Translations under genes and position numbers: made by a program
In this document: in pieces, positions 13,764-59,062 of the stretch
How the letters are laid out: every line of letters begins with the position of its first letter
Position numbering within the stretch: position 1 is the stretch's first letter
Assembly: GCA_965223435.1 (NCBI GenBank)
Contig: CBDCWQ010000023.1
Coordinates: 790,694 to 854,693, forward strand
Source: Myxococcota bacterium
GTDB taxonomy: Bacteria; Myxococcota; Kuafuiibacteriia; Kuafuiibacteriales; Kuafuiibacteriaceae
Direction: 5' to 3'
DNA length: 64,000 bases
Notes under the pieces: model-generated
The model's database searches: none
The model's input: the letters and a program-made list of their open reading frames with translations, nothing else
What the model was told of the DNA's origin: nothing

Positions 13764-13787
13764 CGGTTTCAAAAAGGGAGCACAGTG

Positions 13788-27870: not shown

Positions 27871-27872
27871 GT

Positions 27873-28723: not shown

Positions 28724-29100
28724 GCCTTCCTATCGTTGGCGAACCCTTCGACCAGAGCTCTGCCCCAAAAGTCACATCCGCACGCGTGGCCGCTGGCCGA
28801 CAAGAAAATCCAGTCGTTCTGACCCGTTCCGGGGCCTTTTCTGCCCCCGCCGGCACACGGTCCTCGTCTTATCCTCACCTGGGGTTCGATAGGGAGCCCT
28901 TCGTTGCTGGCGTGCGGCCTGGAAAATCAGCTTCGCCCTCCTGCCGGGGGCCCGGCGGACAGGGTGAGAACTATGGGAATTTACCCTGTTTGTCTCGCGG
29001 CTGCGATGGGCAGGCCGCCCGTCGGGTTGTGTTGTCGGTGGCAAGCCGCCAAGCTCAGCCGGTGTCGACCGAGGGTGTGAGCCCCAGCGTGCCGCGGAAA

Positions 29101-31245: not shown

Positions 31246-31262
31246 CTGATCCATGGGATCAG
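31246..31262. terminator. Short inverted repeat (ctgatcc-atg-ggatcag) in the 19-bp gap between the convergent GT2 and giant-paralog-B stops.
   Basis: 7-bp stem. The only intergenic sequence between two convergent stop codons. Confidence 0.25.
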
Positions 31263-37200: not shown

Positions 37201-40200
37201 CGGTCACGTCACCGCGAAACACGTAATAGAAATCGTAAAAATAACTTGATGGCAGAAGACTACCGAGTCCCTCTAGCGGTCTTTTTTCGACCCAGGCCTC
37301 CACGGAGATGTTGGCGGCGTTGACGGGGGCACTGTTGCTGAAGTCGACTGGCTCGTCCTCGTAGCCCGGGTGCCCGAGCATGGGGCTTTTTTGTTTGGGG
37401 GTCTGGGCTGGGGCCGCGTAGATCTGGTTTTCGCCCGACGCCGGATCTGCCGAACCCCAGGTCAGGTTCTGGTCCGAGCCGTGAATTTGAAACGCGGTGT
37501 TTGTGGGGCCTTTGTCCCATTCCATCGCGGTCAACTTGGACCAGGCATCCACCACCCAATCTGTGGTCCGATTCAGGTCCGTGCCTTGGGCGTAGTTGAC
37601 CAAGGGTCTATCGAGATCGTTTTCGGTTCGTTCGATGTAGTCGTAGACATCGATGTACCAGATCAAGGCGGTGCTTGAGGTCAAGAGGGTGGAGAGGTCC
37701 TGGATTCTCTGGCTCGAATACGGAAAGCCTTCGCTTTGGACGTACGATTGGACACCGGCCCAAAGGTGGAGCGCTTCCTGCCTGAAGGCTTCACTTCTCG
37801 GGTGCTCTGGGTGTTCATGAACAAAGACGAGGAGCCCCAAAATGAGGCCGGTGGTGGCTTCGAGGTGGTAGGAGGCCTCCTGCAGGTCCGTTTGGTCGAT
37901 GTAGGGGTCTTTGAAGCTGTTCGGGAAGTAGTGGGTACCGCGGTAGCAGGTGCCATTTGTCTTCAGATCGTCGGCGAAGTGGTCGATGGTATAGTCCAAG
38001 CATATGGCCATTTTCTCGACGTACTCGTCGGGAAAGTCTGAGGCTCTGTAATCCACCGACAACGACAACCAGCTGCAGTTGTCGATGGCCGACTCCTCGT
38101 TGGCCTCGAGGGACTCGCCGCGGAGCAGTCCGCCCGTGATGACCCTCGATGGGCTGTCAATGACCCGTGCCTCCCGGCATCCGTTGGCCTCTTTTTCGAC
38201 GTGCAGCGGTTTGTCGCTCCAAAGCGCCTTGAAGGTACCGTTTCTGAGGTCGGTGCGCCAAGTCTGAAGCTCGTCGAGTTGGTCTTCGAGTCCTAGCTTG
38301 GACGCGTTTTTGATCGCGTGGTTGAGTACGCTCAAAACATCGAGGTTGTGTTCGGTGACTACGTTTTGTGCGAGGGCGGGCTCCTTGAGGGCCTCCCACT
38401 CTTCGAGCGAAAGCGTTCGGATGCCGCCATCGAGAAGGCTGCCATCCGCTTGACGGAGGCTCACACGAATGTTGGGCTTTTGGTCCTCGTTGTAGGCTTG
38501 ATACCCGACGGCGTCCAAGACGTCGTAGTAGGCCCATTCTTCGTTCGGCCGGACGGGCGGGGTCATGTCTAGGCGAAGTTCGTGCGGGCTTCTTGCACTT
38601 TGGAGGCCCTTTGTGGTTTCGCCCGCGGTCATCAGCGTGACCCGCGTTCCGTCAGGCGCCACAACGTCGTCGTGCCGGTGGCGTTTGAGGCCTTCGAGTG
38701 CCTGCAAGTAGCAGGTCCTGAGCTTCGTTTGTTCGGAAGCGGAGGCTTCCTCAAAGGCGGCAGAGCTCACAAATACGCCAATGCCTTGAACGGCCCACGC
38801 GTTGGCGCCGGTGACGAGGCGTGCGTCTTTCCACGAGTCGTTGTTGGTGTTTTCTGAAAAATGCCAACCGCGGATGATGGTGCGACCCTGCCACTCGCCG
38901 GTCTCAGCATGGGTGCACAGCCAACGGGCCATCCCCCGCGCGATTTTCTTGGCTTCGGGCCCGGGCGTTCGGGCTTGCTGGGCGAGGGCGATGCCCATGG
39001 TGTAGGCCCATACGCGGTCGAAGCCCGCAAGGTATTTGCCGTCTTGGTGTTCGGGGTCGTTGATGATGTGCGCGACTTGCTGGGCCTCCACGCCGAGGCT
39101 CTCCCAAAAAGCGGGATCCCTGAGGCGCAACGCGCCCGGATCGCTCAGGTCGGGCTGGTATTCGACTTGGTAGTAGACTCTCGAGTCTTCATCCATAGAC
39201 GTGCCTTCGCTGTCAGACGCGCTTGGCGCTTCCGAATAGCGAATGAGGCCATCCCGTAGACGGGTGGCCCACAGATGGTTGCCCGTCAGGTACGTGGGGA
39301 GCACGGAGGTTGAGGCGTGATGCTCGAGGCCGTCTTGCCCTTTGAGGTTGACTTGGTCCACATCGTGGCCGCTTTGGGTGGCTCCAGAGCCGGTGTTGCC
39401 GAAGAGGCCCACATAGGCGGTGGCTTGGCCTCCCTGAATTTCGATGTCGACGCCGCCGTCGTCTTCGGTTGATGCGTTCGGGGTGCCATCGTGCAAAAAG
39501 GCCTGAAGTCCGGATGGGCTTGGGCTGGCTCCGTTCGACCCGAGCCGGACCGATGTGTCGACGTCGAGTTGCTGGTGATACTTGTTTTCTACGGTAACAT
39601 GCACTCGCGCGGCGTGGCCCGCACGAACCTGTGTGGGCAGCTCGGTGTCGATGCGGCTGGCCGTTCCCTCGCGTGAGGAGCGGGTGATGATCACGCGCTC
39701 CTGGCCATCCTGGCCCTGGGCCGGCCTTACCCAGGTCGCCAAGAAGAGGTTTTCGTGGGTGGTGAGCGACGGCACCCCGGCCAGGGTGTCTGCGGCTTGG
39801 GCGTGACTCTTAAAGTGGATGGGCTTGGCCGGAAAGGGGCTGAGGACTTCGGCATCGGTCCAAGAGCGCCCAGCGCTTTGGCTGCGACGGATCTGGATGA
39901 CCCCCTCGTCGTCTGTTTTGGGTACATAGTAGAGCACGCCGACTTCACCCTCTTTGGTGACCCCAAGGTCGGGCAGGTAACCGAAGGCGATGTGATGGGG
40001 GGCGGACCATGTGCCTCCGGCTATGGAGTGCTGCACCATGATGGGGTTGTGCCCGGCGACGTTCGGGTTCGAAGAACTTCCGGTTTCATAGACGACAAAT
40101 TGGGTCCCATCGGGTCCGGTGTAGATCCGAGGATAAGAATGGGTTTGATCTTGCTCCGCTTCTTTTTCGAGGGTCGCCACGACCGAGATTCGCCAGCTTT

Positions 40201-43200
40201 CAAACCGACCATCCACCCAGGTGCCTTGGCGCCAGCCCGTTTCGACGGTTTGCTCTTCTTCGTGCCATGTCAGGAGCCCGCGTTCGATGGGCCAGTTCGA
40301 GACCTCGACGGTGGCGGTCGCCGGCTCAGACCAAGCCCCTTCGACCACGGGCCGCTGTGCCACTTTGATCTGGTCCTCTTCGTGCCAGGTGCCGTCATGA
40401 AGATAAAAATACCAGTTCTTTTCGTGTCGAACATTGGGGTCGTACGAAAAGAACGTTTGGTTCCCTTCGCCGTGATAGTAGGTGTAGGCGTTTTCGTTGC
40501 CCGATTCTAGGTCCCGTCTTCTTGCCCTTTCTTCCTCTGAAAGCCGCGTTCGGGCCTGCGGACGACCCCCTTTGGCTCGATATTCGTACACCTGCAGGAA
40601 GCCCATTTGTGCGCGCCCTGCGCCTTCTTCCGGGCACCAATGGGTTCGGGTGCTTCCGTCCCGGCTGGTGACTTTTTTGTCTAGGGGCGGTGCGAGGGGG
40701 CCATACTCTCCGGTCCATTCGGGGTTTCGGAGCGGTTTGTCATCCCACATTCGATTTTGGCGGGCGACGATCGATATACGCTCGTTGTCGATGTGGAGCG
40801 AGGGTTGGTAGACCCAGGCCTCTTCGACACGCTCGAGATAAGGGCCAAACGGTTCGTTCGTTTTGCGATTGTTCTCAAGTCCGTACGAGTAGCGTTCGTT
40901 CGGCATGTCGTTGCATCCGCATGGGGGGGAGGTGTCCTCACATTTTTGTCGATAGACCCGATAGTAGTCGACCACGATGTCGTTTTTTGTCCGGTAGCGG
41001 CGATCGAACACGCTTTCGGGCGTGCCCTCGAGGTTCTTCAGGTAGTAAGCCTTGTTGCTTTCTCCCCAGACCAGATGGAGGTTGTGGAAGCGGTCGTACC
41101 CAAGGTCGAGTCCTCGTTTCCACGCCGGGGTATCATGAACGAGTCGGGCTTCTTTGAAGTGCGCACCCGCCCTATCGCTTTCGACCACCCACAGTTGACT
41201 GCCGGTCGTTTGGGTGTCCTCGCGGCCGTCTTTTTCGATCCAGCCGATGGCCAGTTTATGCGCCTTTGCGTCCAGTGTGAGATCGGTGATGGCTCGTCCG
41301 GGTTTCGAACCTTGGAGGACGGCCGGTTCGGAAAAGGAATGGGGCTTGCCTGCTTTTTGGCTGCGGACGTACAGCAGTTGGTCGCCCTGTCCTTGGCGAC
41401 CCGGCACGACGTACACGAGGTGGGCAACCAGTTTTCCACCGACTTCGGAAACCGCGGTTTGAGGCAGGACGACGGCTCTTTGACCTCTCGTTGCTGGACT
41501 TGGGGCCTCGAACTGACCGGGCGCGGTGACTGGGCGCTGGAATCCAACTTCGACCTTGAGGATGTTTGAGGCCGACGACTCGATGGCCTGACCGCCTTGG
41601 TCGAACAGGACCGCGGTGACGTAATACCTGTAGACTCGGTCCAGGGTTTCGACCTCGTCCGCAAACGACGGTGTGTCCAAATCTGCCGAGCCGTCATTCG
41701 AAATCTGGACGTCGTCACGGTATACCCGAAATCGGGTGGTGAGACCGCGCGGTATCGATGAACCATCAACCAGTCGTTTGGGCGGTTGCCATTGAAGCTT
41801 GACGCGCTTTCCCACCGAATGTCCGATGAGGTCGGTTGGGGGCATGGTCGGCTTTTCCAGTTGGTATAGATCCTTGTAGGTGATCTCCAAGGTGGTCGTG
41901 ACCTGGTTGTGCGCGAGGTCGGTGGCCGTGAGTTCGAGGACGTTGAGGCCGTCTTGGAGCTGAACCAGGGTCTTGAACCCGCCAAGCTCGTCGGTGGTGA
42001 GCGCCTTGGTGGAGCTTGCGGTGGGCTCAAGGATGGTCAACCGCCTTAGATGGGGCTCCATGACTCGCCCGCTGAGGGTGTACGCACGGTCGAAGACCGT
42101 TTCCTTGAGCGGACCGTCGAGGCTGATTTTGGGGACCTCTTGGTCGAAAACGATGCTTCGTGAAACCTGGTTCTCGAGACCCACCAGATCGCGCGCCACC
42201 ACCACGAAGTCATTTTTGTTTTCGTTCAGCCTCACAATGGAACTGAAGGCGCCGTTCTTTTGGGTCACCACCAGCTGGTTGATGCGGACGAACATCAAGT
42301 TTTCGTCCGAGACACTTCCGGTGACCGTTGCAAAAGGGACGTTGGTGTAGGTGACCGGATGAACGAGGTTTTTGACCTCGAGAAACGGAGGCTCAGCGTC
42401 CGAGCTCAAAGAAATGGGCGCGTCCATTTTGTTGAAGAAACCAACTTTTGAGAACAGCGCTTGGGGCGGTGATGCCTCGTCAGAGGCCAGGCTTTCGACC
42501 CGAACCGATTGGACCTTTTCCACCACCTGAAGATCGTCGAAATAGACGTAGACCCGCTTCCAAGAGGGGGATGCGCCTCCTTCAATGAGGGTACTGAGGC
42601 GGATGCGCTCCATCTGTTCGCCTTCACCAAGAACGACCAATTCGGCGTCCATGTTTTCTGACTGGGCTGCGATGTCTACGAAAAACCCGATCGCATTCTC
42701 GGGTCCGTGAGGGCTCTTTTCGGGAGCGGAAGCCAGGTCTGGCGCAAAGCGCATCTTCACGCCGTCCACGAGCAACCCCAAGGAACGTTCGGTGACAAAG
42801 CCTGCTTGGTCGGTTGCGACAAACCTCAGGACGTGAAGGCCGGGGGACAAAGATGCCCGTTCGAGTCGCTGTTCGAATTGGTCTTGGTACAAGGGGATCG
42901 TTTGACCGTCGACTTTGAGGTCGACCAGGTTTTGCTCAACGACTCGACCGTAGAAGAACACCTCCTCTTGCTGAAGGGCGAGCTGGGATGGGTCTGGGAG
43001 CGTGAACTCGATGATGGGTGGCGTGTCGTCGAAGACAACTTCCCTCAACACTTGGCTTTGGTGGCCAAAGAAATCGATGGCTGAGAAGTCGATGAGGTTG
43101 GTTCCGGGAGCCAACCAGAACGCATGTTCGAAGCTTTGATTTCGCCGTCCTACCAAAAGGTCGTCGATAAAAAATGCGAGCAGATGATCATCGTAGACTT

Positions 43201-43543
43201 CGCCGGATACGATCAGTGGGTTTGACCGGCTAAAAGACCTCTTGAGTTTTGGGGTTGCGACATAGAGCACGGGGGGCCTTTGGTCGGGCGATGTGTAGGG
43301 TTCGGCGACCGATGAGGTCTCGGCGTCGTGGAAGGATTCGCCCGGAGTCGATGTCTGGGTGACGGTGATCAGAGGCTGCTCGGCCGGTCCAGCCGTGTTT
43401 TCGACGGGTTCAGGCTGGGTCAGTGCGGAATGCCCGTCCGACCATGGGGTCAGAATGGGACCTTGCCCGCAGGCGGATAAGCCTATCGCTACGCTGAAGG
43501 CCCAAAAAAGCCTCGAGTCCGTTTCCTTTGTTTTCCGATACAT
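31259..43543 (-). CDS. Giant secreted lipoprotein paralog B, ~4094 aa from the proposed start. Same N-terminal/central architecture as A and C. C-terminal part carries an HExxH zincin-like motif and a basic ~110-aa tail.
   Basis: Start MYRKTKETDSRLFWAFSVAIGLSACGQ (ATG 43543, SD AGGAGA 8 nt upstream, perfect lipobox LSAC). The track start 43585 is probably read-through. 'LIGHIAHELTHRIAHNHP' encoded at 32761-32820. Asp-box-like 'SAGRSWTD'. Cys cluster 'CEDTSPPCGCNDMP' (~40895-40945). Confidence 0.8.
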   Translation of the reverse strand: MYRKTKETDSRLFWAFSVAIGLSACGQGPILTPWSDGHSALTQPEPVENTAGPAEQPLITVTQTSTPGESFHDAETSSVAEPYTSPDQRPPVLYVATPKLKRSFSRSNPLIVSGEVYDDHLLAFFIDDLLVGRRNQSFEHAFWLAPGTNLIDFSAIDFFGHQSQVLREVVFDDTPPIIEFTLPDPSQLALQQEEVFFYGRVVEQNLVDLKVDGQTIPLYQDQFEQRLERASLSPGLHVLRFVATDQAGFVTERSLGLLVDGVKMRFAPDLASAPEKSPHGPENAIGFFVDIAAQSENMDAELVVLGEGEQMERIRLSTLIEGGASPSWKRVYVYFDDLQVVEKVQSVRVESLASDEASPPQALFSKVGFFNKMDAPISLSSDAEPPFLEVKNLVHPVTYTNVPFATVTGSVSDENLMFVRINQLVVTQKNGAFSSIVRLNENKNDFVVVARDLVGLENQVSRSIVFDQEVPKISLDGPLKETVFDRAYTLSGRVMEPHLRRLTILEPTASSTKALTTDELGGFKTLVQLQDGLNVLELTATDLAHNQVTTTLEITYKDLYQLEKPTMPPTDLIGHSVGKRVKLQWQPPKRLVDGSSIPRGLTTRFRVYRDDVQISNDGSADLDTPSFADEVETLDRVYRYYVTAVLFDQGGQAIESSASNILKVEVGFQRPVTAPGQFEAPSPATRGQRAVVLPQTAVSEVGGKLVAHLVYVVPGRQGQGDQLLYVRSQKAGKPHSFSEPAVLQGSKPGRAITDLTLDAKAHKLAIGWIEKDGREDTQTTGSQLWVVESDRAGAHFKEARLVHDTPAWKRGLDLGYDRFHNLHLVWGESNKAYYLKNLEGTPESVFDRRYRTKNDIVVDYYRVYRQKCEDTSPPCGCNDMPNERYSYGLENNRKTNEPFGPYLERVEEAWVYQPSLHIDNERISIVARQNRMWDDKPLRNPEWTGEYGPLAPPLDKKVTSRDGSTRTHWCPEEGAGRAQMGFLQVYEYRAKGGRPQARTRLSEEERARRRDLESGNENAYTYYHGEGNQTFFSYDPNVRHEKNWYFYLHDGTWHEEDQIKVAQRPVVEGAWSEPATATVEVSNWPIERGLLTWHEEEQTVETGWRQGTWVDGRFESWRISVVATLEKEAEQDQTHSYPRIYTGPDGTQFVVYETGSSSNPNVAGHNPIMVQHSIAGGTWSAPHHIAFGYLPDLGVTKEGEVGVLYYVPKTDDEGVIQIRRSQSAGRSWTDAEVLSPFPAKPIHFKSHAQAADTLAGVPSLTTHENLFLATWVRPAQGQDGQERVIITRSSREGTASRIDTELPTQVRAGHAARVHVTVENKYHQQLDVDTSVRLGSNGASPSPSGLQAFLHDGTPNASTEDDGGVDIEIQGGQATAYVGLFGNTGSGATQSGHDVDQVNLKGQDGLEHHASTSVLPTYLTGNHLWATRLRDGLIRYSEAPSASDSEGTSMDEDSRVYYQVEYQPDLSDPGALRLRDPAFWESLGVEAQQVAHIINDPEHQDGKYLAGFDRVWAYTMGIALAQQARTPGPEAKKIARGMARWLCTHAETGEWQGRTIIRGWHFSENTNNDSWKDARLVTGANAWAVQGIGVFVSSAAFEEASASEQTKLRTCYLQALEGLKRHRHDDVVAPDGTRVTLMTAGETTKGLQSARSPHELRLDMTPPVRPNEEWAYYDVLDAVGYQAYNEDQKPNIRVSLRQADGSLLDGGIRTLSLEEWEALKEPALAQNVVTEHNLDVLSVLNHAIKNASKLGLEDQLDELQTWRTDLRNGTFKALWSDKPLHVEKEANGCREARVIDSPSRVITGGLLRGESLEANEESAIDNCSWLSLSVDYRASDFPDEYVEKMAICLDYTIDHFADDLKTNGTCYRGTHYFPNSFKDPYIDQTDLQEASYHLEATTGLILGLLVFVHEHPEHPRSEAFRQEALHLWAGVQSYVQSEGFPYSSQRIQDLSTLLTSSTALIWYIDVYDYIERTENDLDRPLVNYAQGTDLNRTTDWVVDAWSKLTAMEWDKGPTNTAFQIHGSDQNLTWGSADPASGENQIYAAPAQTPKQKSPMLGHPGYEDEPVDFSNSAPVNAANISVEAWVEKRPLEGLGSLLPSSYFYDFYYVFRGDVTGIEIGPELGVLLSIRQEGRELFVKDVPLDESGHFETALKQEDAVVFLGDAHRFTLSTKIARLRRGSGEILATTGGPTSIQNATSAHAVYQPTPRYSGKKGEWFIHGADSETFELKDHAQNTIAAAHAKDLALLVSGYTKSDQEGARPITRTEDQALAVLAAVHRGDLEQAWAWGWALKRVTQTVFHPENPLALIPYAVDAETGVAVAPYYQTGSQMMALYALATLHRALEPVHPARAQTLAEHILKLQQSMRTAYFHQEAGHPLEGFFQSGNGFPEAWAKALEGNAEEPHPEDVSLPVFASASLRDHVYAYFAFARAAEVLPDPKGRALAKDLKRSVEDKLENAFWQDDRPLRFIQDPSDEQKVDATEDSIGMHALYTLFALERGLVRRAHLSLDRLAGLTHALKDTWADGKGFDFSNSFALVVLAERGGARIDPRLEQLAWSRLETLLSASAGPGSMAAMLLAEHPKDLFGVTASPVAFVRSPSALHWEERVQRRIEQQGLDTLLSLFLSPYRPQSFDTGMNRMVQLVALAEALHEGVPVERWRSFYREETYSHRVAYTVWALQNLCESRNQGALTGLDLNRSLGLSCEAASAHFKALLVARTGTSEDPSRLAALIEHPHDAFELTQRIYQLTRDDVPSPHSYGDSLHGNTQIVQAPKGPVSFDFIREADPVELSADLSVAQRKEQLQTHWQTTLQDALLEQRHLGRTPWFEVEGINFIGLGNKASLEASGRKALEYLVLQGPEHQTRYALGGIPTREPLPEAWKMLEPGVGVIGSAEATNAGHLRRFINAEAGGQLPKLARQAGLDPSIVHRAMRSGLLLETHLMSMMNAVGLSQEKADAYKAGFTFVEPNDPRVHISATGTPKNELALHQVGLATAILDPVNPSVGTELATPKNPRVHFVLPASEEVGNTELPGKEVCYEVFRFDAQTLSPEDFLALSVEEAEQHRIDACAKASPYEDLGLLEAYFQRAPTQDRFDPMYAVVLSTPQTRSFLSGYVQLPQIPSVFPRAYRRPLVGGKASPGPGIPDSDPTIEENALVIDMAILYTASAVRESGGVDALNEDIDRIVGAANQALLDMDSSVRIVAHTAYTTYQEIGDVRLDAADIQAHAPQSILSPYLGFKADLLTVLTRSGLGGSTEGPTEHRVTSPHGTWVHTRLHPGTLAAVHDQSGRGAMGVQEVGEFQTLGRFNELVYFLLGCRALGEDERCAPLLEATAAATRNVDGQMHRVADYLVQSASGLGLPAPIPAISKHSPCADVPLENTGDHNIVWSARSDSSWLNILLDGQPAETLGVPERTLVPRASSMLRVCGGIPGFPESAFSPPQKVITLEFINQTDGGLIETRVLHFPDAEERPNEPRKQPLGATQAHADDDTFGHAPSSEDLDEQTREDIKRIVDAHSPLNVPLVKEVIGRSAMFNWLQRQLPDRGLKMKWTDGPTGFVPGTVGKQIVLISERHALNPERLIGHIAHELTHRIAHNHPLFHQQTEDQVYACADGSGTCTLAGWSRAALSEKAWREAHFNAWVRAEAQSVFYEMVVLKEIRSFLEKTGDTRYALDRLYLSGTRLEAYEAIVDAFWPFRGAEPYQQELDAREEAIQKLKRLVHVAVGSGGQSYRTRFTQKINAVWGYGTEDARAQTVINLRFQEGAHHPDDREHYQGTLRAQYNDFSTDLVPGKVYDGQSFVDDLIFVAIHNENRPTVNVAPESGNSLEGLASDGRLPRGLFIDPDFWEELEDHGIYSLADYLERLHEEERLYADEETKETLDNIDLSQCYTNPDCPVIQILLEYEDDQGDQAVAFSVHYPYEGNGEAIPITLLDLLGLAPIPVAKVGAVLGTAALAGLGFVKVASTTAPKFASATKISLGRTGNIFTVPLKRPISSEVSTNPTIHFLSRQEARKGFTGGLRTSANQFYRHAKDKGQHFRTEKLPDGNYRFEFFHAANNPGYGKRYIKVVDPTGTTLKSYKETIGPKGLLETKWLVGGPD
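32761..32820 (-). other. HExxH(xxxH) putative zinc-metallopeptidase motif within paralog B.
   Basis: RLIGHIAHELTHRIAHNHP translated from this interval. Confidence 0.5.
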
Positions 43544-43585
43544 GGGGGGTCTTTCTCCTAAAAGACATATGTGGGTCCTGGTCAT

Positions 43586-43857: not shown

Positions 43858-46800
43858 TCAGCGATGGACTACCTTCAAGGCCCAGACAATGTTCTCAAGG
43901 GTCTGGATCAGCGCATCGATTTCGGGAACCAGTTTCTCGAATCTTGGGGAACGTATGTGCTCGGCCTCGAGCAATTCGAGCAGGGGTTCGGTAAATGGCG
44001 CCCAATGGGCCTCGAGTTTATCTTTGAGGTCTTTTTGGAGGGGGACAGAGATGCGGATCTTTTCGTTTGGCGTGGTGCGGAGAAAGGCAAAGTACTTTTC
44101 TACGGCGAGGTGTCCGTCTGTCGTCACGGCGGTGAGCGGTTGTTCGATGTCTTTTTTGAGGGACGTGGTCATGGTGGCGCTCCGGAGTCTTCGAAGGTCT
44201 TCGATGAGGGTTGTGAGCGCTGAGATCTGTTTTTCCAACGTGAGATTCGAAGGGTCAAGGTGCGAGGTGGGCTTGAAGGCCAGGTTTCGGGACTCAGCCT
44301 GGCGCAGTCTGGCGAGGCCTTTATCGAAGGCCGCCAGCGGGTCGGCGGCCGCATAGCTCTCCCCGACGAAATGGTCTAAGGTGGGTGTGTAGTAGACGAC
44401 GCTTCGGTTTGGCATCACCACGCGGACATAGGGCTGGTCTGGAAGCCTTTGGAAGATTTCTTGCACGGCGTTCTCATCGACCGTTGGGTCTCCCGTGCCG
44501 CTCATGCTCACCACCACTTGGCTCTCCTTGGGGAAGACGGCGACCTTGGGGTGTTGCCAGCCGGAGCCATTCATTACGGGGAATGCGGCGTAGAGGCTTT
44601 GTGGAACAAAACCCTTCAGGAAGATCTGGGCGATCGGTTTGCCATGCACAACGCCAGTCACCTCGAGTTCGACGTCGGTGAGGGGTGCGCGGTTGATGTA
44701 CACCTTTCTTTCGCTGAAGCCGGCTGCGCCTGGCCCAGAGCCCGGGGTGTCGCCACGGTAAAGATGCTCCAGTGATATCGCGTTTTCGAGGGGGTCGCTT
44801 GACACCGCGACCTCGAGTTCGTGGAACTTGCCGTCCCGGGTTCGCGCTTGAGGCTTCACCGATTCGCCGGACACGAGGCGAATGACGCTCTGGTCGGTGT
44901 GGTTAAAAAGCTCGTCGAGCTCTTGTTTATCTTTGCTGGTGAGTTGCCCGTCCGACGATGCGGTATAGCCGGTAATGATACGGTCTTCTCGGGGAATGAG
45001 GCCCCAAAAAGAGTTTTTCGGTGAAAATACGATAAAAAACTTCTGCTTGCGATCGTATACCTGGACCACGTTGTACCGGATGTTCACCCGCGGTTGATGC
45101 AGATCTCTGACTTTGGCCATTCTCTTGTCGGTGAGCGCGTCCGGACTGACGCGGACCATGCCGCTGAATCTGTAGTTTGAGGCGAGGGTGTTGAGTTTTG
45201 TCGACGGAATACCGTAGGTCTTGTGGGGCAGGTTTTCTACCTGGGCGATCAGTTTCTCCACCGTGGCGTCCTTGTTGCTTTCGAAGGTGAACGAGAAGCC
45301 GTCTTCGTCTTCGGCCACGGTCAGGGCGTTTCTCTTGATTGCTTGATCGATCTCTTCGCCGGTCAGCACTTCAAAGGGGTCTCGGGCCTCGCGTTTGAAG
45401 AGGACGACGTCAATGAATCGCTCCGGCTCCGCGAGCACGTCGCTTAGAGAACTCGGTGGGGGACCGTAAAGATAGGTGGTGGTGATGCTCCCCGCTTCGA
45501 AGGTCGTTCCCGTCCGCTGAGGCGGCTCGGGCGAAACTCTGTCGAGCAAGTAGATTAAGGGGCGTTCGGTGAAGGGGGACTTGGCGGCGGCCGCTCGTAT
45601 CAGACCGATGGCCAACATGGGCTGGACGATTCCGCTGCCAAGAAGCTCGTCTAGGCTCAGGCTTGTCTGCACCAGCGCTTGTTCGATTTCGATCGGGCGG
45701 GCCTGGGTTTTGTGGCTCAGGGCTTCTAAGTCGAGCACCAATCCCAATGCGGCAGCGTGAGGGCTGGCGAAAGTTGTTCCGCATCGCTCCGCATCCTCGG
45801 CACAGGCGACGGCAGACCGGCCGGCGGCCGCAAGTTTCACTGAGGGGCCGGTGTTGGCATAGTCCCTAAGGCTGGCCCGCTGGCTCGGGCCGAATGAGTT
45901 GAGGGCGGTCACAAAGATCACGTAGTCGCTGAGAGCCTTGGCATTGGGGTGCACGTCTTCGAGGGGCTTGCCGTCGTTTCCGGCGGCGACAAAAATCGTG
46001 ATGCCTGCGGCACGGGCCTCGCGAACGGCGGCGAGAAAGTCATCGTTCAGCCAGGCGCGGAACTTATTGGCGTTGGCAAAGGAGCTGTCGAGACTGATGT
46101 TTAGCACGGAGATCCGTTCGCCGCCCTGATGGTTGTTGAAGTCGGTGCGAAGTTTGGTTGCGAGCCGGACTGCTTCCGGAACGTCCACATTGAAGGGGGC
46201 CATGAACCCGAGAAAGCTTGCGTCATAAGGGTCATGGCCGGCCAACTTGGCAAGCCTCGTGTATTCAAACTCCAACGCGCGACGCACCAGGAATCCGTGG
46301 ATGGCATGCGGATCCTCGGTCATGAGGTCTTTGCTGTTCGGAACCGTAAAGCTGCGTTCGATGATCCCGATGGTGGCCTTGGCTTTGTTTGTTCCGAAGA
46401 GCCGAACCGTCTTGATGGGTGGGGGGGCGGTGCCGAACGGTGCGGGCTTGATCACGGCGGTTCCGCCCTCTTGCTGGGAGTCGACCAGAGGAATGGCCTC
46501 GCCCGTCTCCTGTCTGGTGAAGGGGGATGCTTTCTTTTCGCTCAAACTGCTGTACCCCGCGGCGTCGAGCCACCAGGAGGGTCTTTTGCCTTGATCGTTC
46601 CGGTCCACTTTGACCGCCCGTTCCGCCGTTTTTGCGTCAAAAAACCATCCGAGGAGAAAAGCCCGGCCCCAGCGCAAAAAGCCTTCTTGGAGTGCGGCGC
46701 TGGGCAGGTGCGCCGCGATTTCCAGCATGGCCTGCCACCACTGGTGATGCCGGAGGAAGTTGTCGATCACTTCGCCTCGGCTGTGGGTGGTGTCGAGGGC

Positions 46801-49800
46801 AAACACCTTGACCCGTCCGTCGTCGCCGAGGATTCTCGGCAGATCGGGAATACTGAGGTCGAGCGTCCCGCCTCCCGATTCGGGCACGATGCCGCGTAGC
46901 GGCAAAATCTCGGGCAGATGCCGAGCATCAAAACCATAGATCCGGCCGTCCTCAAACGGTCTTTGGGTGCCCGCTTGGGTGTCAAATTCTCGGTGGCTTC
47001 GAATGGTCTCCTCGTCTTCAAAAAATAGACCTACCCCCGTTTTGTCGTCGAAAAAGACCGCTTCTCTTACAATCTCACCCGCCTGGACGGAACCGACTTC
47101 GACCCAGGCGGAACTCGGCGCCTCTTCGAAAACCACCATCGTTTCCAGGCCGACGTCCGCCTGACCGGCCATGATGGCGCCTGCGGGAAGGGCGAAAGGG
47201 AGCACCGCGGCGGCCAGGCTCGCATCTTGGAGAATCAATCGCTGAAGCCCGGCGTATGTGCCCTTCATCGACTGCTTGATGGCCTTGACGCGCGCCACGT
47301 TGGCGGAGGACACATCTTCGAGGACGGTCACACCCTCGTCCCTGCCAGCGTTCGGGTTGGGGGTGAATGCTTCAAAAAGTTCTAGAAGTTCGGGGGATGG
47401 CCGCATCCACGCCGCCAGGTGTGCGATGTGGTTTTGGTACTCGCCGGCCAGCTTTTCGGCCGCCTCTACGGAGAGGGCCTGACCATAGATTTGGAGTTGG
47501 TCGATGAGGCCGTCAAAGACGTGGGAGACGGCCTTGGCTCCCCAATGTCCGCCGATTGCCAAAGGACCTGCCTCTTCGAGCCCGGGCCATGAGGGGTAAA
47601 AGGATAGGTTCATGGACGCGTTGGCGATGCCGTTTACGTAAAGAAGGCCCTCTTGGATGGGACCCTCCCAGGTGACGGCGACGTGATTCCATTCGCCGGG
47701 CCTCAAGGCGTCGACGGAGATCAGGGTGTGTGCGGTGGGCGTTCCTAGAGGGTTCGTGACCAAGAAGGCGGCTCGATGGTCGGTCATGACCCGAAGCTCG
47801 AACCCCTGGCCCGCTTCGTCTCGATTGCCGACCACGACCCCGTCTTCGGTCAAGGTCCGGGCGGGGTTGAGCCATACGCTGATGCTGAAAGATTCGTCCC
47901 CCCCGAAACGGAGCGCGTCCTTTGGCGAGGGCACTTGAATGGCCCCATAGGCGATGGGCGAGGTGCTGGGCCGGTAGGCGTGGCCTCGTCCGCCTACGCC
48001 TGCTTCGTATCGCCATGCGGGCATGGGACCCATGGGAAAGACGCCCGGTGCGTAGTGCCCGGTGGAGTCGCGGGTATTTTTTTCGAAGGCCCATTCGCCG
48101 ATGGGCGCAAGGGGTTTGGGTTCGGTGAGCGCTTCCTTGAGCGAGGACTCGTCGCGATTTTCGCCTAGTGAAATTTCGATGCTTCGCTCCACCTCGTAGC
48201 CGGTGGCTTTGTTCCTCAGCCGTATGGGGAGGGTGTAGGTCGAAGGCACGGGCAGCCCCAAAAGCCTCCAAGGCTCGGTGCTGACGCAGATGTTGGCGCC
48301 TTCGCGCGCACCGTGTTCGAGGTGTTGTGTCGGATAGCGAGAAACCCAAACCAGGACCCGTGCCTCGTCATCCGGATGGATGAACTGGTGGTCGACCTCG
48401 AGCGCGCCGTCTTTGAGTGCGATAAAACATTGGGTGGCCGCACCGTCCACGGGCGCTTTGATGCGAAGCACTTCAGGCACCACTTCCATGTTTTCGTAGA
48501 CCGCATCCTCGGTCATCGCCCACGCGGTGTTTGGGCGCCCAAGACCCGGTTCTCCGAGTCCACTCAGAGACCAAAGTTCGGCTTCGTTCCCGAGGGTGCC
48601 AAGGTCATCGCCCGTCGGCGCGGAGCCTCGGATCTCGACGGGTGTGGTGTCGAAGGTGGTTCCGTCGTTTTGCCGCAGCCTCAGTGAAATCCAAAGCGGC
48701 TCCCCGCGGCCGGCTGCTCGGACATACTCTGGCCAGGGCTGCCCGAGGATACTCTTGTCTTCGTGAAAGAAGGCGCCGGTGTGGAATGCACCTACGGCGT
48801 GGGTTTGTTCCCCGGCGGAGATGTCACGGAGCAAAAACCGAATGGCGTCGTGGACGCCACCGTGCGCTGTTGACTTCTTGAACACAAAGGCTTCGACGCT
48901 CGTGATCGGGGTATCATCGTCGAGAACGAATCGGGTGTGCACCACCGTTTCTTTGGGGGCAATTCCAATGCCAAAGACGTGCTGGCTTTGAAACTCGGCC
49001 GTGACGTGGACATCGGCCAAGTGGGGTGTCCACGCCTTAGGGGCGTGCACGCTGGGCTCTTGAGGCATTCCCGGGGAAGATGGCTGCATGAGCACACACG
49101 AAAACGGGAGCCCGGGCACCGGTGGGGTGATGACGTACGAGCCTTGGAGGGCCACGCCCGCCTTCCCGACCGGCGTGAAGTGAAAGTGTGTCGGTTTGTC
49201 GTTGATGGCAAACAGCTGTGCATGAAACACGCCCGCATCGCCCTGGCTTCGCCGCGCGTAGACGTCATGGTGCGCCCCTTGAAGGAGTCCCGCATCGTAG
49301 CTGCAGAGGAGGTTCTGCTTGTTTTCAGGAATCGGCGGGTCTTTTTCAGGAATGGTGACTTCGACGAGGCCTTTTTCGAGCGGCCCAAACTGAAAGTCGG
49401 TGGAAAAGGCGACGGCCAGCGCCGATTCTTCCGGCGAGCCCAAGAACCCGAAAAGGTCGCCTGGCGTCGATGTTTGAGGGTGAGACAGCACACTCAGGGC
49501 ACGGTCCGGGGCGGCATCCCAAACCGCCAAACTGCCGATGAACCACGGTGCCCACGGCGCACCAAAACCGGCGCCCAGAACTGACGCGCGATGCGCCCTG
49601 TCGTCGTCTACGGGACTCAACCGATTCCGCCACGCATCTTGGGTGCTCGGGCCCAAGGCATGAGCTTGCCCTCCGGCATGGCCGTCGACCAGCATGTCAA
49701 AGTCTGCGGTCGACAAGACTCCCTGGCGGAGCCTACTGTGGAGCCAGCCCGGGCGCATGGCGATGCGGTGACTGAAAGGGACGAGCCGCCCCTCGCCAAA

Positions 49801-52800
49801 AGTGTGAATGAACTGTCGAAGTTGAGTGCTCCGCACTTGCTTTTCGGCGCTGAGGGGCCAAAGGGGCGGATCCACCGGCACTCCAAGCGCGCTGAACTGA
49901 ACGTGATGGCGGGCGGGCGTTTTTAAGGCGAGGCGAAGCGCGACGTGGGTGGGGAGCCAGTAGGCCAAAGAAGCCGGTGAAAACGCCTCAATGGGATCTA
50001 TTCCGCTGAGTTCGAAGTGTATCGGCTGCTTGTCCTCGCGCGCCCGGGTCAGCGCGTTTTCGACCACGTGGACCAACCGGGCGCGGACGGTCTTTTGGAT
50101 CCCTTCGAGCGAAGCGTCGGGGGGAATCACAGAACTTGTATGGTCTTCAAAGAGGCGGTGGATGCCTTGCCAGCGGTTGGGTGCGGTCCGGAGCTTGAGA
50201 CCGCTTGGTTCTGGCAGAGCGCCGACCACGGGGTCCGTCAGGCGGACCAGATCATTCAACCTAAGAAGGTCCTCTTCGTGATCGTAAGGCAAGATCTCAA
50301 CGAGCTGGTCGGGTGAGGTGCCCGTGCGCGCTCTCAGGAGATGGGCGACGGCGTTTTCAACGACCGCACACGCTTGGGGCGTGCCCAAAAACGCATCCAA
50401 CGAAACCGACGCCTCGGCGAGGAGGTCAGCCTCCTGGGCACACAGGGCAAAAAGGTCGTGTACCGTTTCCCGAACGCGGTCCGAAAACCCGCTTGCACTC
50501 AGTTTTCTTGCCCACGCCTCTGGGGGCGTGGGCCCGCCGCCCGTGGAGCCGAACGCCAGCTGTTTGAGACCAAAATGGATTCTTACCAGCTGCCGGAAAA
50601 GTTCGTCAAAGCGGTGGGCCTCGAAGTCGGACGCCAAAAGGGCGCCCAGGGTCTCCACCATCTTCACCTTGAGACGGTCTTCGAGGGCAAGCCAGGACTC
50701 TGACCTCCGCACCGGTGGACGAGGGTTGGCGCTGACCAGGGCGGGCCCGGCCTGCACGCCCAAAAAGCCCGACGGTTGATGAACAAGGCGCGCGGCGATT
50801 TGGGCCGCGGGGTCGGGGGCTTCGAGGTTTCTGAGGGCGCTCAGCTCCACGAGCGCCAGGGCCTCCTGCCGCGAATCGATCCCCCGCACGCCGCGCCTTG
50901 CCAACGGGACGCCGATGAGATCTAGCCAGGCCAGGGGCTCGGCGCCGCCTTCCCCCGTGCTCTGGGAAAAGGATTGGGGCGCATGCGTGCGGGCGAATGC
51001 GAGCGCGTCGAGAAGGGCGAGGGCCTTGCCCGGCGCTTGGGCATCGAGAAAAAACAACGAGCAGAGGGCATAGGTGCTTGGCCCGTCAGCCTCAACGGAG
51101 GCGCCTTCCCGGAAAACTCTCTTGATGGGTCGGGTGCCCCCTTCGTTCCCGCAAAGCTCGGCGAGGCGTGCCCCGATTCGCTCAGCCCAATCCAAAAACA
51201 CGGGCTCTTGTGGCGAAGCCTCCTTCAGGGCGAAATAAGCGAGGACGTTATCGTCCACGTCGGCGTGGGCCGCGTCCGGGAGGGCGTGGAAGAGGCCCTG
51301 GTCGTGCCCCACCTCGTGTTCTCCTCGGCCCGGCGATAGGCCGCCGTCTGGCAACTGGTGTCCGAGGTCATGGCGGAAGGCCTGGCTTTCAAGAAACAAA
51401 AGTTCGGCTCGGAGCAAGGATTGGGCCTGGGATGCAAGGTCGGGCTCAACACCGTTCAGTTTCGAAAAGGCAGCGATGGCACCGAGCGCAACCATCTTTT
51501 GGCCGAGTGTGACTGCAGATCCGAGTCCCTCCGCCTCGCTGGGCTCGGCCTCCGAGGTGGGGGCTGGGGCCGACGACCGGGCCGCGAGAGGGGCCGTGAG
51601 GGCCAAGCTTTTGAACCACTTGGCCGCGGCGGATGGGTCGTGGTCTTTGCTCGCCGCCCAAAGGGCCAGCGCTTGGGTCTCGAAGGTTGGCGATGAGGAG
51701 CCTTCGCCGTTTGATGGTCCCTCCTTGAGGAACGCGTCGATCCGGGTGTGCGCAGCGTTCACGAAACGTGCGGTTTCTTTGACCCCGATGCCGAGCGCGT
51801 AGTGCGCAAGCGGCCCGTCGCTCCGGTCCTTTTTGGGTTGAAGATGATCGTGCACATCCATGAACCACACGATGGCGGTGCTGGAGTAGAGGCGGGTGGA
51901 TAGATCCTGGATGCGTTGACTCGAGTAGGGAAAGCCGTGGTCGCGCACAAACCGCTGGGACTCTGCCCAGAGGGTGTGCGCAAGCGTTTCGTATTCTGTT
52001 GCCCGCCGGTGCTCCGGGTGGGCGTCCTTGAACTGAAGCAGGCCCATGATGAGCCCCATGGTTGCTTCAAGGTGATAGGACGATGTCTGGAGCACGCTCG
52101 GGGCGATGTAGAGGTCGCGAAAGTCGTTTTGAAAGTAGTGGGCTCCGGTATAGGTCCCGTTCTGGTTCGGACATGCCCCTTCTTGGTCCCCAAGGCAAAA
52201 ACCGAGTTCTTTGACGTAACGAATGACGGTGTATTGGAGGCACCGGTCGAGCTTTTGAACGTATTCGGTGTCTGTCCCTTCGGAACGCTCTGGCGTCAGA
52301 TCGCGGTAGTCGACGGAGAGGGATAGCCAGCTGCAATTGTCGATGGCCGAGTGGTGGCTTTGCCCGGTCAGGGCGTACAGCGGTTCTAGGTCCCCTTGAC
52401 CAGAGGACAGCGCCGCCTGGTTGGCTTTTGGGGTCAGGTCTCCTTGGCTCCCCGTCACCATTCGTCCCAGGGGGCGTTCGGAGTCGAGGGCTTCACGCAT
52501 CGCACGCGCTTCGTTTGTATTGGGGTTCTGGGCGATGGTGGCTTCAAATTCTTGGATCCAGCCCGTTTCGTCCCAAAGTAAAGTGAAGATGCCCCTTCGA
52601 AGTTTGTCGCGCCAGCGCTCCAGGTGTTCTTGGTTTAGGTCTTGGGTTTGATTCAGGCCGAGGGCGCTTGCGTGGTCGAGGGCGTGGTTCAGTACACTCA
52701 GGACGTCGAGGTTGTGTTCAGTCACCACGTTGAGGGCATGGTCCTCCTGTTTCAGGGCCTGCCACTCGGTTTTGGTCAGCAACTTCCATTTCCATACGTC

Positions 52801-55800
52801 TTCGTTGCTGGTGCGGTGCGCGGCACACGCATCGTCGAGGTCACAGACTTTTACGCTGGGTTCAAAGTCGGGGTCGTAGTGGTCGTAGCCGATGACGTCG
52901 AGTACGCTGTAGTAGCCTAGGCGCCCCTGTCGGCTGACGCTGAGGCCCAACGTGTGAGGCTTCGAAGCGTGCCGCAGTCCCCGAGTCGTCCAGCCCGCGC
53001 TCATCAGATAGACCTCTTGGCCGCCTTCGGTATGAAGCTTTCGGCGATGGCGTAGGAGTCCTCGCAAAGACATTTCGTAGCAGCGCTTGAGCCAGTTTTG
53101 GTCCTGGTTCATGGCGTCGTAGGCCAAAGAGCTCAAGAAAACGCCCAAACCATGGACCGCCCACGCTGTCGCTCCAGTGACCAAGCGAGCGTCTCGCCAA
53201 TGGTCCCCCTGGGTGTTCCACGAAAAATGCCAGCCCTTCAGTTCGTTGTCGTGCTGGGCGTCGAGGACCGCTTGGGCGCACAGACTGCGCGCAAGCCCCT
53301 GTGCGCGCCGCTGGGCGTCGGGGTCCCCTTCTCGGGAGGCTTGGGCGAGGGCGATACCCATGGTGTACGCCCACACCCGCTTGTAGCCAGCGAGGTGCTG
53401 GGCATCTTGGGCATCAGGCGATGTTGAAACGTCGTCGGTGCCGGCTGCTTCCCATCGTTCTTGTTTGGCACGCTCGACTTCATTTGGGCGATACTCCACG
53501 AGATAGAGTCCGGTCGTCCCTTCAGGAACAAAGCGATCCTTGTAAAAATACTCGGTGGTCCTTTGGGGCGCTTGCTCATCGGCATTTTTTTCGTTTGCCT
53601 CTTCGGGCGCCAGCGATAGGTCGGTTCGAAGTAGGGCCTTTCGCTCGCTCCAGGCGCGTGCGTAGTTTGCACTGACACCGCTTGTTTCGGGTTCAGCCAA
53701 TCTGAGGTCTACATGGGCATTGTCAAAGGTGACGACGCTTGCCGCGGCCGCGCCCGGGGCAAGGGTGAATTCGATTTGCCCTTGAAAGGGGGCGATTTGG
53801 GGCGGCGGGCTCCCTGTGGCCTCGGAGGCGGGCGCCAAGACACTGGTTTCGGAGCTTTTTGGAACGTCTTTGTATACCGCCACGTGATCCCCATTCACGG
53901 CCCGGACTGTGGCCTGAACGGCGTGGTTGCTGACGCCAAGACTCGGCCTTATGGTTGTCGAGACCTGCCGCACTTCGTTGTCCCATGATGCCCGGGTTGC
54001 AAAGATGCGTTCGAATTGCTCGTTGGTCGCCCCATCTCCCGCGAACGTGACGACGGCCAGGGTGCCCAGGGTTTGGACCGCTGGGACGGCAAAGTAGCTG
54101 TCCTCGTAGGTCGTTCGGGCTTCGGCGTGTGAGCCTTGTGGGTTCAAGTGAGGCGGCTTGACCGGATAGTGGCGTGCACTTCGCGGATCTTGGCTCAGTT
54201 CGCCAAGGGTCCATGTCTCACCGCCGTCGGGGCTCTTGGCCAGCATAAGCTTTGCCGACGGTTTTGGGGTTGAGTCGGTGGGTGCGCGCGGCGCGCCATA
54301 GGCCACCAACAGGGCTCCGTCAGAGGCGACGGCGATGTCTGGCATGTAACCCCTCAGATCCTCGGCACCGGCGCGCAATCGATGCGGTGAGGACCATGTG
54401 AGGCCGCCATCGTCAGATTGCGCCATGTGGATGGCATTCCCGTTCGGTTGATTTGCGTTGGATGACGAACCTTTTTCGTACACGACAACGAGCTCGCCGC
54501 CCGGTGTCGATACGAGGTGGGGGTAGGAAGGGCGCTCCTGGTGATCTTTTTTGGTGACGGTATCGATGGTCGAGATGCGCCAGGGTTGTGTTTTGGATGC
54601 TTGCTCAGCGCGGACTTTGTCTTTTGGCCCCAGCGGACTTTGAAGGGGGCGCATGGCGATTTTGATGTGGTCGTCCTCGTGCCAGGTCCCTTCATAAAGA
54701 TATTGCCACTGGTGACCGATGTGTTCCCACAAAAGTCTATCGCCGGATTCGTAGTGTTTTTTCCATGTTTCTCGCCATCCGACAACGTGTCGCGTGGGTC
54801 TGGGTTGATAGGTGATGGACGCACCGAACACTGGATCTTTCGCCATGCGCAGCCACGCGGGGTTTTCGACGGGTTTGTCGTCCCAGGCGCGAAACTGGCG
54901 CGCCACGATGTAGACCGCGCGGTCGTCCACCCACAGTGAGGGCGCATAGGCGTAGCTGTTTTCTAACCAGTCGATGTGGGTCGCCTCGGCGTCTTCGTTT
55001 TCGCCCAAAACATACGATTCTTCGCACCAGCAATGCGCGCAACGACACTCGCCGTTCACCGGCTCATATTGCACTTTGTATTGGACGACTTCTCGAGCAG
55101 GCCGGCGCCTCGGAACATCAAACACGCTGAGTCGATGGTGGTCTTGCTTCTGGCCGAGCGTCTTGCTCTCTTCTTCCTCGAAATCTCTTGCGTAATAAAT
55201 CTTGTTGCCTTCATTCCACACCATATGGTGGTGCCCGAACCCATCGAAGGCCATCGAAAGGTCTCGTTTCCATTCTCGACTGACACGGTCCGACCAGACT
55301 TCAAAAAAGCGATCGTCGCTTTTGTCTTTTTCCCATACCTGAATATGATGCTCGCCTTTTTCGTTCTGCTCGATAAAGCCGACGAGGACGCGACTGGGGG
55401 TCGCGGCGACGGCGACATCGGTGATCGTCTGCCCGCGTTTGGGTTCGAGGACCCAGGCGCGATGGACAAAGCTGCCCGGAGCCCCACTGATTTCGCTTCT
55501 TCGGTACGCGATGGCGTCCTGGTTTTCTTGGCCGGGGCGACGGACGATGTAGGCGAGGTGCAGGTGCTTTTTTTGCCCGTGTTGGCTGAGTGCGGTTTTG
55601 GGCAACAAGGTACGGTGTTCGACCGGAGTGACCGGGAACGGGGGTTCGAATTCGCCGAGAGCCATGACCGCTTGGGGTTCCACCACCGATTGTACGACAG
55701 CGGTCGAGGGCATGGACCATGGAGCCGTTTGAGATGGGGTCTGAACCACGGCCTGGACCGAGTAGCGATATTCGCCATACGCAGGCACGGTTTCGCTGTG

Positions 55801-57910: not shown

Positions 57911-59062
57911 TCAGTCGCCGGCTTCAAATGGGTCCGAGAACATGGGGTTTTGCACGAACGCATGGTCCGTAAGGCTGTGGAGGAACGCTTTCAGATCCGC
58001 ACGCTCATCCGCCGACAGCACGAAGCCGACCATGAAGGGGCTCTTTTTGGGGCTCTTGCTGCCGTCTCCAAGGTGTTCGCCCTCTGAAATGTTTCGACCT
58101 CCGTTGGCGTAGTGATCGATGGCTTCATCCAAAGTGGCGACGCTCCCATCGTGCATGTAGGGGGCCGTCAGCGCGATGTTTCTCAAGGTCGGGGCTCGAA
58201 AAAGCCCCATGTCTTGCGGATCTTGAGAGACTTCGAATAGGCCGCGGTTCGGCGGGGGATACGCGCCGTTCCCATCAAGATTGTAAAGGCCGGTGTTGTG
58301 AAAAAAAGCCTCACGAAAAACCGTCGTGGCCGAGGCCACCGAATTGGCGAAGTTGAACCCTCCGTGACAATGAAAGCATTCGAGCTTTTCGGAGAAAAAA
58401 AGATCCATCCCACGCTTGGCCGTATCCGAAAGTGCGGTCGCATCTCCGTGGACAAACCGATCGTATGCAGAGTTGCCCGAAATCAAGGTTCTCTCAAAGG
58501 CGGCGATGGCCTTGACCACATGGTCCAAAGAAATCGCATCATCTGCGTCCGAAAACGCCTCCGGGAATAATCTTTGGTATTCCGGATCGGCCCGCAGGCG
58601 GTCGATGAGGGTGTCTTCCAGCCCGGCCAGTCCGAGCTCAACCGGGTCCTCACCAAACATGGGGAGGAGTGCTTGGGCCTCCAGGGTTCGAATCAGCCGG
58701 TTGGCCCAGGTCTGGGCCGAGTTGTAAGCCACGTTGGTGAGGCTCATCGAGCTGCGTGGGGTGATTTCGCCGGTGGATCCGAGCGCCTGTGCCCGGCCGT
58801 CGGTAAACGCGTGTTCTTGAAGATGACAGGAGCCGCAGGCCTGGGTTTCGTTCCCGGAAAGCCGCTTGTCATAGAAGAGACGCCGTCCCAGGGCGACCTT
58901 GGCATCATTCATGGGGTTGTCGGCGGGGACCTCCGGCACCGGAAACCCCGTGGGCAGCTGCCACGGGTACTCTTCTGATTCGCCGCCGCCGCAGTGCAAG
59001 AGAAACGACGCGACGACCAGCGCGCCTAGGCCTTTTATGAGGGGCTGTTTCATCGCTGTCAC
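57911..59062 (-). CDS. Di-haem cytochrome c peroxidase family protein (MbnH/MauG-like).
   Basis: Two CxxCH haem sites (CGSCH, CFHCH). N-terminal signal peptide. Size and layout match the CCP/MauG family. Confidence 0.8.
   Translation of the reverse strand: MTAMKQPLIKGLGALVVASFLLHCGGGESEEYPWQLPTGFPVPEVPADNPMNDAKVALGRRLFYDKRLSGNETQACGSCHLQEHAFTDGRAQALGSTGEITPRSSMSLTNVAYNSAQTWANRLIRTLEAQALLPMFGEDPVELGLAGLEDTLIDRLRADPEYQRLFPEAFSDADDAISLDHVVKAIAAFERTLISGNSAYDRFVHGDATALSDTAKRGMDLFFSEKLECFHCHGGFNFANSVASATTVFREAFFHNTGLYNLDGNGAYPPPNRGLFEVSQDPQDMGLFRAPTLRNIALTAPYMHDGSVATLDEAIDHYANGGRNISEGEHLGDGSKSPKKSPFMVGFVLSADERADLKAFLHSLTDHAFVQNPMFSDPFEAGD

Follow-up and report, generated by a model that had tools for sequence, protein, structure and literature searches.

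We analysed a 64,000-nucleotide window of the genome of a Myxococcota bacterium (contig CBDCWQ010000023.1, positions 790,694 to 854,693). The window contains three tandem genes for giant paralogous proteins, here called A, B and C, all on the minus strand. Paralog A (16352-26878) comprises 3508 residues and paralog B (31259-43585) 4108 residues. Gene C, the last of the three (43858-57444), is one uninterrupted open reading frame (ORF) that encodes a giant protein of the secreted type with 4528 residues. The three proteins share 29-32% identity over 1600-2650 residues. Here we describe a subtilase-like (S8) domain of protein C, in which a Thr occupies the position of the catalytic Ser.

The N-terminus of protein C is signal-peptide-like, as read off the sequence. 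It is followed by three Glucodextran_B-type Ig domains, a BNR-like region and an orphan central domain. The C-terminal part consists of a Laminin_G_3 domain (residues 3179-3327), a conserved domain that we term domain X, the S8-like domain and a C-terminal tail of 580 residues. Long stretches of the protein have no match in Pfam, NCBIfam or the PDB. The S8 domain has left no trace in paralogs A and B.

Domain X (residues ~3430-3640, window ~46516-47150, minus strand) is located directly upstream of the S8 core, to which it is connected by a variable low-complexity linker (residues ~3640-3680). It is characterised by the aromatic motifs KIYGFD, HHxWW..LEIAAHLP and LLGWFFD. The domain partly aligns with residues 2723-2947 of paralog A. 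No homologue was found in the PDB, nor in Pfam for domain X of any family member.

A divergent subtilisin-fold domain in protein C

Residues ~3680-3950 of protein C (window 45595-46405, minus strand) constitute a genuine, very divergent subtilisin-fold domain of MEROPS family S8. A subtilase-like domain had been proposed here from the sequence-only reading, and profile and structure comparisons bear this out. The Pfam profile PF00082 matches residues 3777-3936 (profile positions 110-286 of 288) with a score of 26.1 bits for the full-length protein and 31.0 bits when the domain is taken by itself; the gathering cut-off is 21.8 bits. The match is above the cut-off in all four members of the protein family described below. 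The N-terminal half of the S8 domain is so divergent that Pfam sees only the later part of the profile. When the four-sequence family profile is compared by hhalign with a profile of 21 canonical S8 sequences, the alignment covers the full domain with a probability of 99.8% and an E-value of 1e-28. The canonical set includes a BPN' sequence in which D32, H64, N155 and S221 were confirmed. The PF00082 score together with the hhalign E-value rules out a chance similarity to S8.

The best phmmer matches among PDB sequences are intracellular subtilisin, subtilisin BPN' and AprV2. In these alignments A-A-G-N-D-G falls on A-A-G-N-E-G, and G-T-T-F-A-S-P-H on G-T-S-M-A-S-P-H. An AlphaFold2 (AF2) model of the S8 domain, calculated with a multiple sequence alignment (MSA), is subtilisin-like, with a mean predicted local distance difference test score (pLDDT) of 73 and a predicted template modelling score (pTM) of 0.80. 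The top Foldseek matches of this model in the PDB are all subtilases (E ~1e-9 to 1e-10, TM-score 0.5-0.6). The structural support is partly circular, because the MSA supplied to AF2 contained subtilases; the single-sequence model of the domain reaches a pLDDT of 43.

Subtilisin BPN' and the bacterial S8A enzymes (ISP, and AprV2/BprV of Dichelobacter nodosus) are the best matches in both sequence and structure, and share the fold and motif order with C. The A-A-G-N-x-G and G-T-x-[MF]-A-S-P-H motifs align residue for residue, and the His is found at a helix N-terminus in C as in these enzymes. In contrast to them, C has a Thr in place of Ser221, two candidates for the catalytic Asp and no Pfam-detected I9 propeptide, and its domain sits deep inside the protein, at residue ~3690 of 4528.

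Two further differences concern cleft-forming segments. According to hhalign and MAFFT, the cleft-forming S-L-G-G segment is changed to S-L-D-S in C, and the Gly-rich 100-104 loop is missing. The I9-type propeptide is common but not universal in S8 proteins. No Pfam match to I9 was found in residues 3331-3700 of C or in domain X of any family member. In a comparison of domain X with canonical precursors, hhalign gives a weak collinear match to the propeptide, the 'PWG' motif and strand beta1 (E 0.07).

Catalytic positions and their state in relatives

Protein C retains the catalytic His, the Asn of the oxyanion hole and the helix cap G-T-x-[FM]-A-S-P-H, while the nucleophilic Ser is replaced by Thr. 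Thr3891 (codon ACT, window 45772-45774, minus strand) is part of GTTFASPH (residues 3889-3896, window 45757-45780). phmmer, hhalign and MAFFT agree in placing it on Ser221 of BPN', as the sequence-only reading had it. The G-T-S triplet is present in all 36 canonical S8 proteins that were recovered alongside, so that the Thr of C is a departure from an otherwise invariant residue. A single nucleotide change turns ACT into a Ser codon (TCT or AGT).

Asn3823 (window 45976-45978, minus strand) lies in FVAAGNDG (residues 3818-3825, window 45970-45993) and is placed on the oxyanion-hole Asn155 by the same three methods. It precedes Thr3891 by 68 residues, compared to 66 between Asn155 and Ser221 in BPN'. 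The sequence-only reading, with the oxyanion motif and the Ser-motif scaffold present at the expected spacing of ~70 residues, is confirmed.

The catalytic His is not the His of the 'HG' pair (H3716). It is His3713 of the EDPHAIHG segment (window 46306-46308, minus strand), three residues earlier, that hhalign puts on His64. The residue is invariant in the 14 rows of the MAFFT alignment (four family members and 10 canonical S8 proteins), and a predicted helix begins with it, in line with the catalytic His of S8 proteins, which starts helix C. In the AF2 model, H3713 and T3891 each start a helix and N3823 is just past a strand, as in subtilisin.

Two other peptidase classes were considered. Sedolisins (S53) use a Ser-Glu-Asp triad, with Glu instead of the catalytic His and Asp instead of the oxyanion Asn; the retained His3713 and Asn3823 rule out this identity. 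Threonine peptidases of the Ntn hydrolase type (proteasome, T1) carry an N-terminal Thr, exposed by autocleavage, on an alpha-beta-beta-alpha fold. This identity is ruled out by the internal position of Thr3891 and by the subtilisin fold.

phmmer was run exhaustively against 1.84 billion cluster representatives with a 461-residue query from C. Besides C itself, only three proteins matched the whole query: P0002 (3493 residues), P0003 (1070 residues) and P0008 (2736 residues). All other matches are ordinary subtilases, which align to the C-terminal half of the query only. The family consists of four proteins from three genomes, that of C and two others. They are singletons on three large NCBI/ENA contigs, with P0002 and P0003 on one and the same contig. 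P0002 and P0008 are C-type orthologues over most of their length, while P0003 is a shortened version. Two scans of GTDB species representatives and one of JGI metagenomes found neither a related locus nor a relative of the C-terminal module, and word-indexed searches with the domain or family alignment returned nothing or one canonical S8 protein. The lineage of the window may be very poorly sampled.

The oxyanion and nucleophile motifs read AAGNDG and GTTFASPH in C, AAGNDE and AGTSYASPI in P0002, SAGNSG and GSSYVAPH in P0003, and AAGDES and AHTALASFV in P0008. In this order, the nucleophile position is occupied by Thr, Ser, Ser and Ala, and the oxyanion position by Asn, Asn, Asn and Asp. The Thr is not kept in any relative, which argues against a dedicated Thr-nucleophile lineage. 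P0008 has lost the Ser and the Pro of the nucleophile motif as well as the oxyanion Asn, despite having a close, Ser-bearing sister in P0002: the two proteins are 54% identical over the C-terminal half of the S8 domain and 54-65% around it. The loss of the active site at this level of identity points to relaxed selection on catalysis, with the fold kept. The module of domain X, linker, S8 core and tail is preserved in the C-type proteins of three genomes, indicating that the S8 domain itself is maintained. Across the four family members, domain X shows a mean column identity of 63%; the S8 core is far less conserved, with 25-31% identity to C.

The position of the catalytic acid, which in S8 proteins is an Asp at the end of strand beta1 (D-[ST]-G), is less clear, with two candidates in C. 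Glu3696 (codon GAA, window 46357-46359, minus strand) is part of the IGIIERS motif (residues 3692-3698, window 46351-46371), and its codon is one nucleotide away from Asp. The motif is present as described in the sequence-only reading, which took it as a Glu-for-Asp substitution. IGIIE resembles the VAVID of beta1, but the substitution itself is insecure, and Glu3696 is a low-confidence candidate for Asp32. The alternative is Asp3551 in the GRVKVFALDTT segment of domain X (window 46792-46794, minus strand), ~145 residues upstream of the core and beyond the coordinates given in the sequence-only reading. The homologous strands are ARIEVYVLDTE in P0002, SRIKLYVLNTE in P0003 and GRIDVFVLDTE in P0008, giving D, D, N and D for C, P0002, P0003 and P0008.

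We consider it doubtful that Glu3696 forms a triad with His3713 and Thr3891, in which both the acid and the nucleophile would be substituted. Profile and MAFFT alignments do put the residue at the end of a strand on beta1/Asp32, and the AF2 strand also ends at E3696, in a register that was imposed by the alignment of the model. However, the posterior for this placement by hhalign and MAFFT is ~0.3-0.6 and applies to C only, and the column contains Phe, Ala or Gly but no acid in the relatives. The spacing to His3713 is 17 residues, compared to 32 in BPN'. Strand e2 of BPN' (KVAGGASMVP) is an equally good match for IGIIERSFTVP, the distance from VP to His being 11 residues versus 12, and the IGIIE strand may correspond to e2 instead of beta1.

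In addition, the D3551 site scores better than that of Glu3696 in every family member. A position-specific scoring matrix (PSSM) for the beta1/Asp segment was derived from the canonical S8 alignment at BPN' positions 22-37 and scanned over the whole proteins. The D3551-type site ranks first in all four, with 3.1, 7.9, 2.7 and 11.1 bits in C, P0002, P0003 and P0008, although these four sites are not independent of one another. The IGIIE-homologous sites rank third in C and 74-97 in the relatives (-13 to -16 bits). A composition null gives ~0.7, 0.07, 0.2 and 0.012 expected equal or better matches per protein in the same order, so that the signal is significant only in P0002 and P0008. Of 94 upstream windows of 24 columns that were joined to the core, the three with the D3551 motif score highest (z ~2.3-3.1). 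Local hhalign on the D3551 strand reaches a posterior of up to 0.9 at an overall E-value of only 0.05-0.07. A third register with TVRLF as beta1, which places a Phe at Asp32, was ruled out by the same PSSM (-17 bits, rank 313).

Neither of the two candidate columns is invariant throughout the family. Judged from the sequence comparisons, Asp3551 has only a slight edge over Glu3696 as the Asp32 equivalent, each being possible but short of probable; the remaining probability falls to neither residue, with no acid at all. If Asp3551 is taken as the Asp, the active sites read D-H-N-T in C, a complete D-H-N-S in P0002, N-H-N-S in P0003 and D-H-D-A in P0008. C would then differ from a complete site by the Ser-to-Thr change alone, which requires one nucleotide, and an insertion of ~140 residues would separate the Asp from the His. 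Tripeptidyl peptidase II (TPPII) is an S8 enzyme with an insertion of ~200 residues between the catalytic Asp and His. Under this tentative insertion model, the Asp strand of C would likewise be separated from the His helix by a large insertion. In contrast to TPPII, to which it has no sequence similarity, this insertion would consist of two or three conserved helices and the disordered, variable linker.

Interpretation of the substituted active site

In C, the S8 domain is probably a dead protease or a severely crippled one. Proteolysis would no longer be what selection maintains in this S8 module. The domain would instead be retained as a folded scaffold or, as we infer, a ligand- or peptide-binding module of the giant protein. 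The sequence-only reading had left the choice between a pseudo-protease and a rare Thr-nucleophile variant. The comparative data are best accommodated by the former, while the Ser, Ser and Ala of the relatives disfavour the latter as a lineage of its own.

The loss of activity in C is probable by analogy with Ser-to-Thr mutants of trypsin-fold proteases. Trypsin and thrombin are strongly impaired by S195T, as the added methyl group collides with the substrate on its way in and limits the freedom of O-gamma (PMC8695361, citing Baird 2006 and Pelc 2015). In the same source, no natural Thr nucleophile is documented for the trypsin-fold family. The parallel consists in a Ser-to-Thr exchange at the nucleophile of a Ser-His-Asp protease; the mutants described there are laboratory variants of the chymotrypsin fold, whereas the substitution in C is natural and occurs in a subtilisin fold. 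Our literature search for data on subtilisin S221T found none.

The closest precedent for the C domain, by analogy, is the pair CspA and CspC of Clostridioides difficile. These are subtilase-fold pseudoproteases whose inactivity has been shown (PMC7200643). In CspA, the substitutions vary across species and some homologues look intact, and restoration of the triad did not restore activity (PMC7200643). The C family resembles the Csp proteins in the subtilase fold, in the substitution of triad residues, in the retention of the domain despite a loss of catalysis that for C is probable, and, as regards CspA, in substitutions that differ between homologues, some of which look intact. A subtilase fold with at least one substituted catalytic residue, one of the two marks of such pseudoproteases besides inactivity, is found in C (Ser to Thr) and in P0008 (Ser to Ala, Asn to Asp), and the domain of C would be a pseudo-protease in the sense of CspA and CspC. 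The affected residues differ: in CspC the His is replaced by Thr and the Ser by Gly, in CspA the His by Gln and the Ser by Ala, while C has Ser to Thr and keeps the His. The Csp proteins function in spore germination while C is a giant secreted protein, and their inactivity is experimentally established while that of C is inferred. We found no specific sequence relationship between the C domain and the Csp proteins.

Several observations weigh against a dead or crippled site. Apart from the Ser-to-Thr change, the motifs of C are unusually intact (GTTFASPH, AAGNDG and the His), while a site that has been dead for long would be expected to resemble P0008. If Asp3551 is the true Asp, P0002 has a complete D-H-N-S site, and the clade may have been active ancestrally, with some members perhaps active to this day. 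Thr can in principle serve as a nucleophile, and self-cleavage in a single turnover needs little catalytic power. In the AF2 model, confidence is low from the presumed Asp strand to the His, and the argument from selection is based on four sequences (n=4).

In a different explanation, C is a working, probably slow protease with Thr3891 as nucleophile, His3713, and either Asp3551 or Glu3696 as the acid, acting for example in single-turnover cis-processing of the giant protein. Such an enzyme would fit the intact His, Asn and nucleophile helix, the Asp candidate that the family conserves upstream, and the Ser kept in P0002 and P0003, which suggests that the clade may be catalytic; with Asp3551 as the acid, C is one conservative change from a complete site and P0002 possibly has a complete triad. 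We nevertheless regard it as unlikely. The Thr is conserved in none of the three relatives, the site is clearly lost in the close relative P0008, the cleft-forming segments are altered and Pfam detects no I9 propeptide. We know of no natural S8 enzyme with a Thr nucleophile. The trypsin-fold mutants discussed above, together with the absence of a documented natural Thr from that family, point in the same direction. That C is a natural, catalytically competent Thr-nucleophile subtilase (Asp3551 or Glu3696, His3713 and Thr3891, with Asn3823), for instance one that slowly processes itself, appears very unlikely.

It is also conceivable that the Thr stems from an error in sequencing or assembly, or that it arose by mutation very recently at the strain level, and that the real or ancestral protein is an ordinary Ser subtilase. 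ACT is a single substitution from a Ser codon, the motif around the Thr is perfectly canonical, and protein C is a singleton cluster from a single contig, with no second copy that confirms the base. We give this explanation little weight: the source contig is 2.0 Mb long, the 13.6-kb ORF is uninterrupted and consensus substitution errors are rare in assemblies. Moreover, it leaves both P0008 and the divergent N-terminal half unexplained. We favour a non-catalytic or severely impaired S8 module in C.

If the domain is indeed dead or crippled, it is a further case of a protease fold reused as a non-catalytic module, here within giant secreted proteins whose family is almost uncharacterised and known from only a handful of genomes. 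Degenerate subtilase domains are a kind already known, to which C adds one more. Protein C should not be annotated as a protease on the Pfam match alone. With Thr, Ser, Ser and Ala at the nucleophile position and one possibly complete triad, the family represents a small natural experiment in active-site decay with the fold kept. Only if Thr3891 is catalytic would the domain be informative about a long-standing puzzle, the use of Ser rather than Thr in Ser-His-Asp proteases. It would then be, to our knowledge, the first natural Thr nucleophile in a classical Ser-His-Asp protease fold.

Orphan central domain and neighbouring genes

The orphan central domain (residues ~1340-1870 of C) is common to paralogs A, B and C and is well conserved. 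Its invariant stretches include NVVTEHNLDVLSVLNHA and GWxFSWNTxGDxWxDxRLVTGAxAW. PDB and Pfam searches with this domain gave no match. Its relatives were found on only ~5 contigs in a collection of 5.8 billion proteins, often as several smaller paralogs per genome.

The window has a G+C content of 60% and contains no tRNA genes or Rfam families. Directly upstream of the start of gene C, an MbnH-like di-haem cytochrome c peroxidase and MbnP form a pair on the minus strand (57911-59062 and 59099-59941). A gene for an extracytoplasmic function (ECF)-type sigma-70 factor (Sigma70_r2/r4; 28100-28723, minus strand) is located between paralogs A and B. It is divergent to a gene for a 920-residue protein with two family 2 glycosyltransferase (GT2) domains (28477-31239, plus strand). 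The listed ORF of the GT2 protein overlaps that of the sigma factor by ~250 nt, and its start is therefore probably further downstream. A gene for an MscS-like channel is found at 27025-27924.

On the other side of paralog A, a plus-strand gene (13785-15029) encodes a protein with CHRD and Spondin_N domains, a combination that is unusual for a bacterium. An ORF of 568 residues (12744-14450, minus strand) overlaps this gene, has no Pfam match and is probably spurious. A glutamine-synthetase-like ORF of 344 residues (15120-16154, minus strand) aligns to Gln-synt_C over profile positions 5-156 of 344 only and may be truncated or degenerate.

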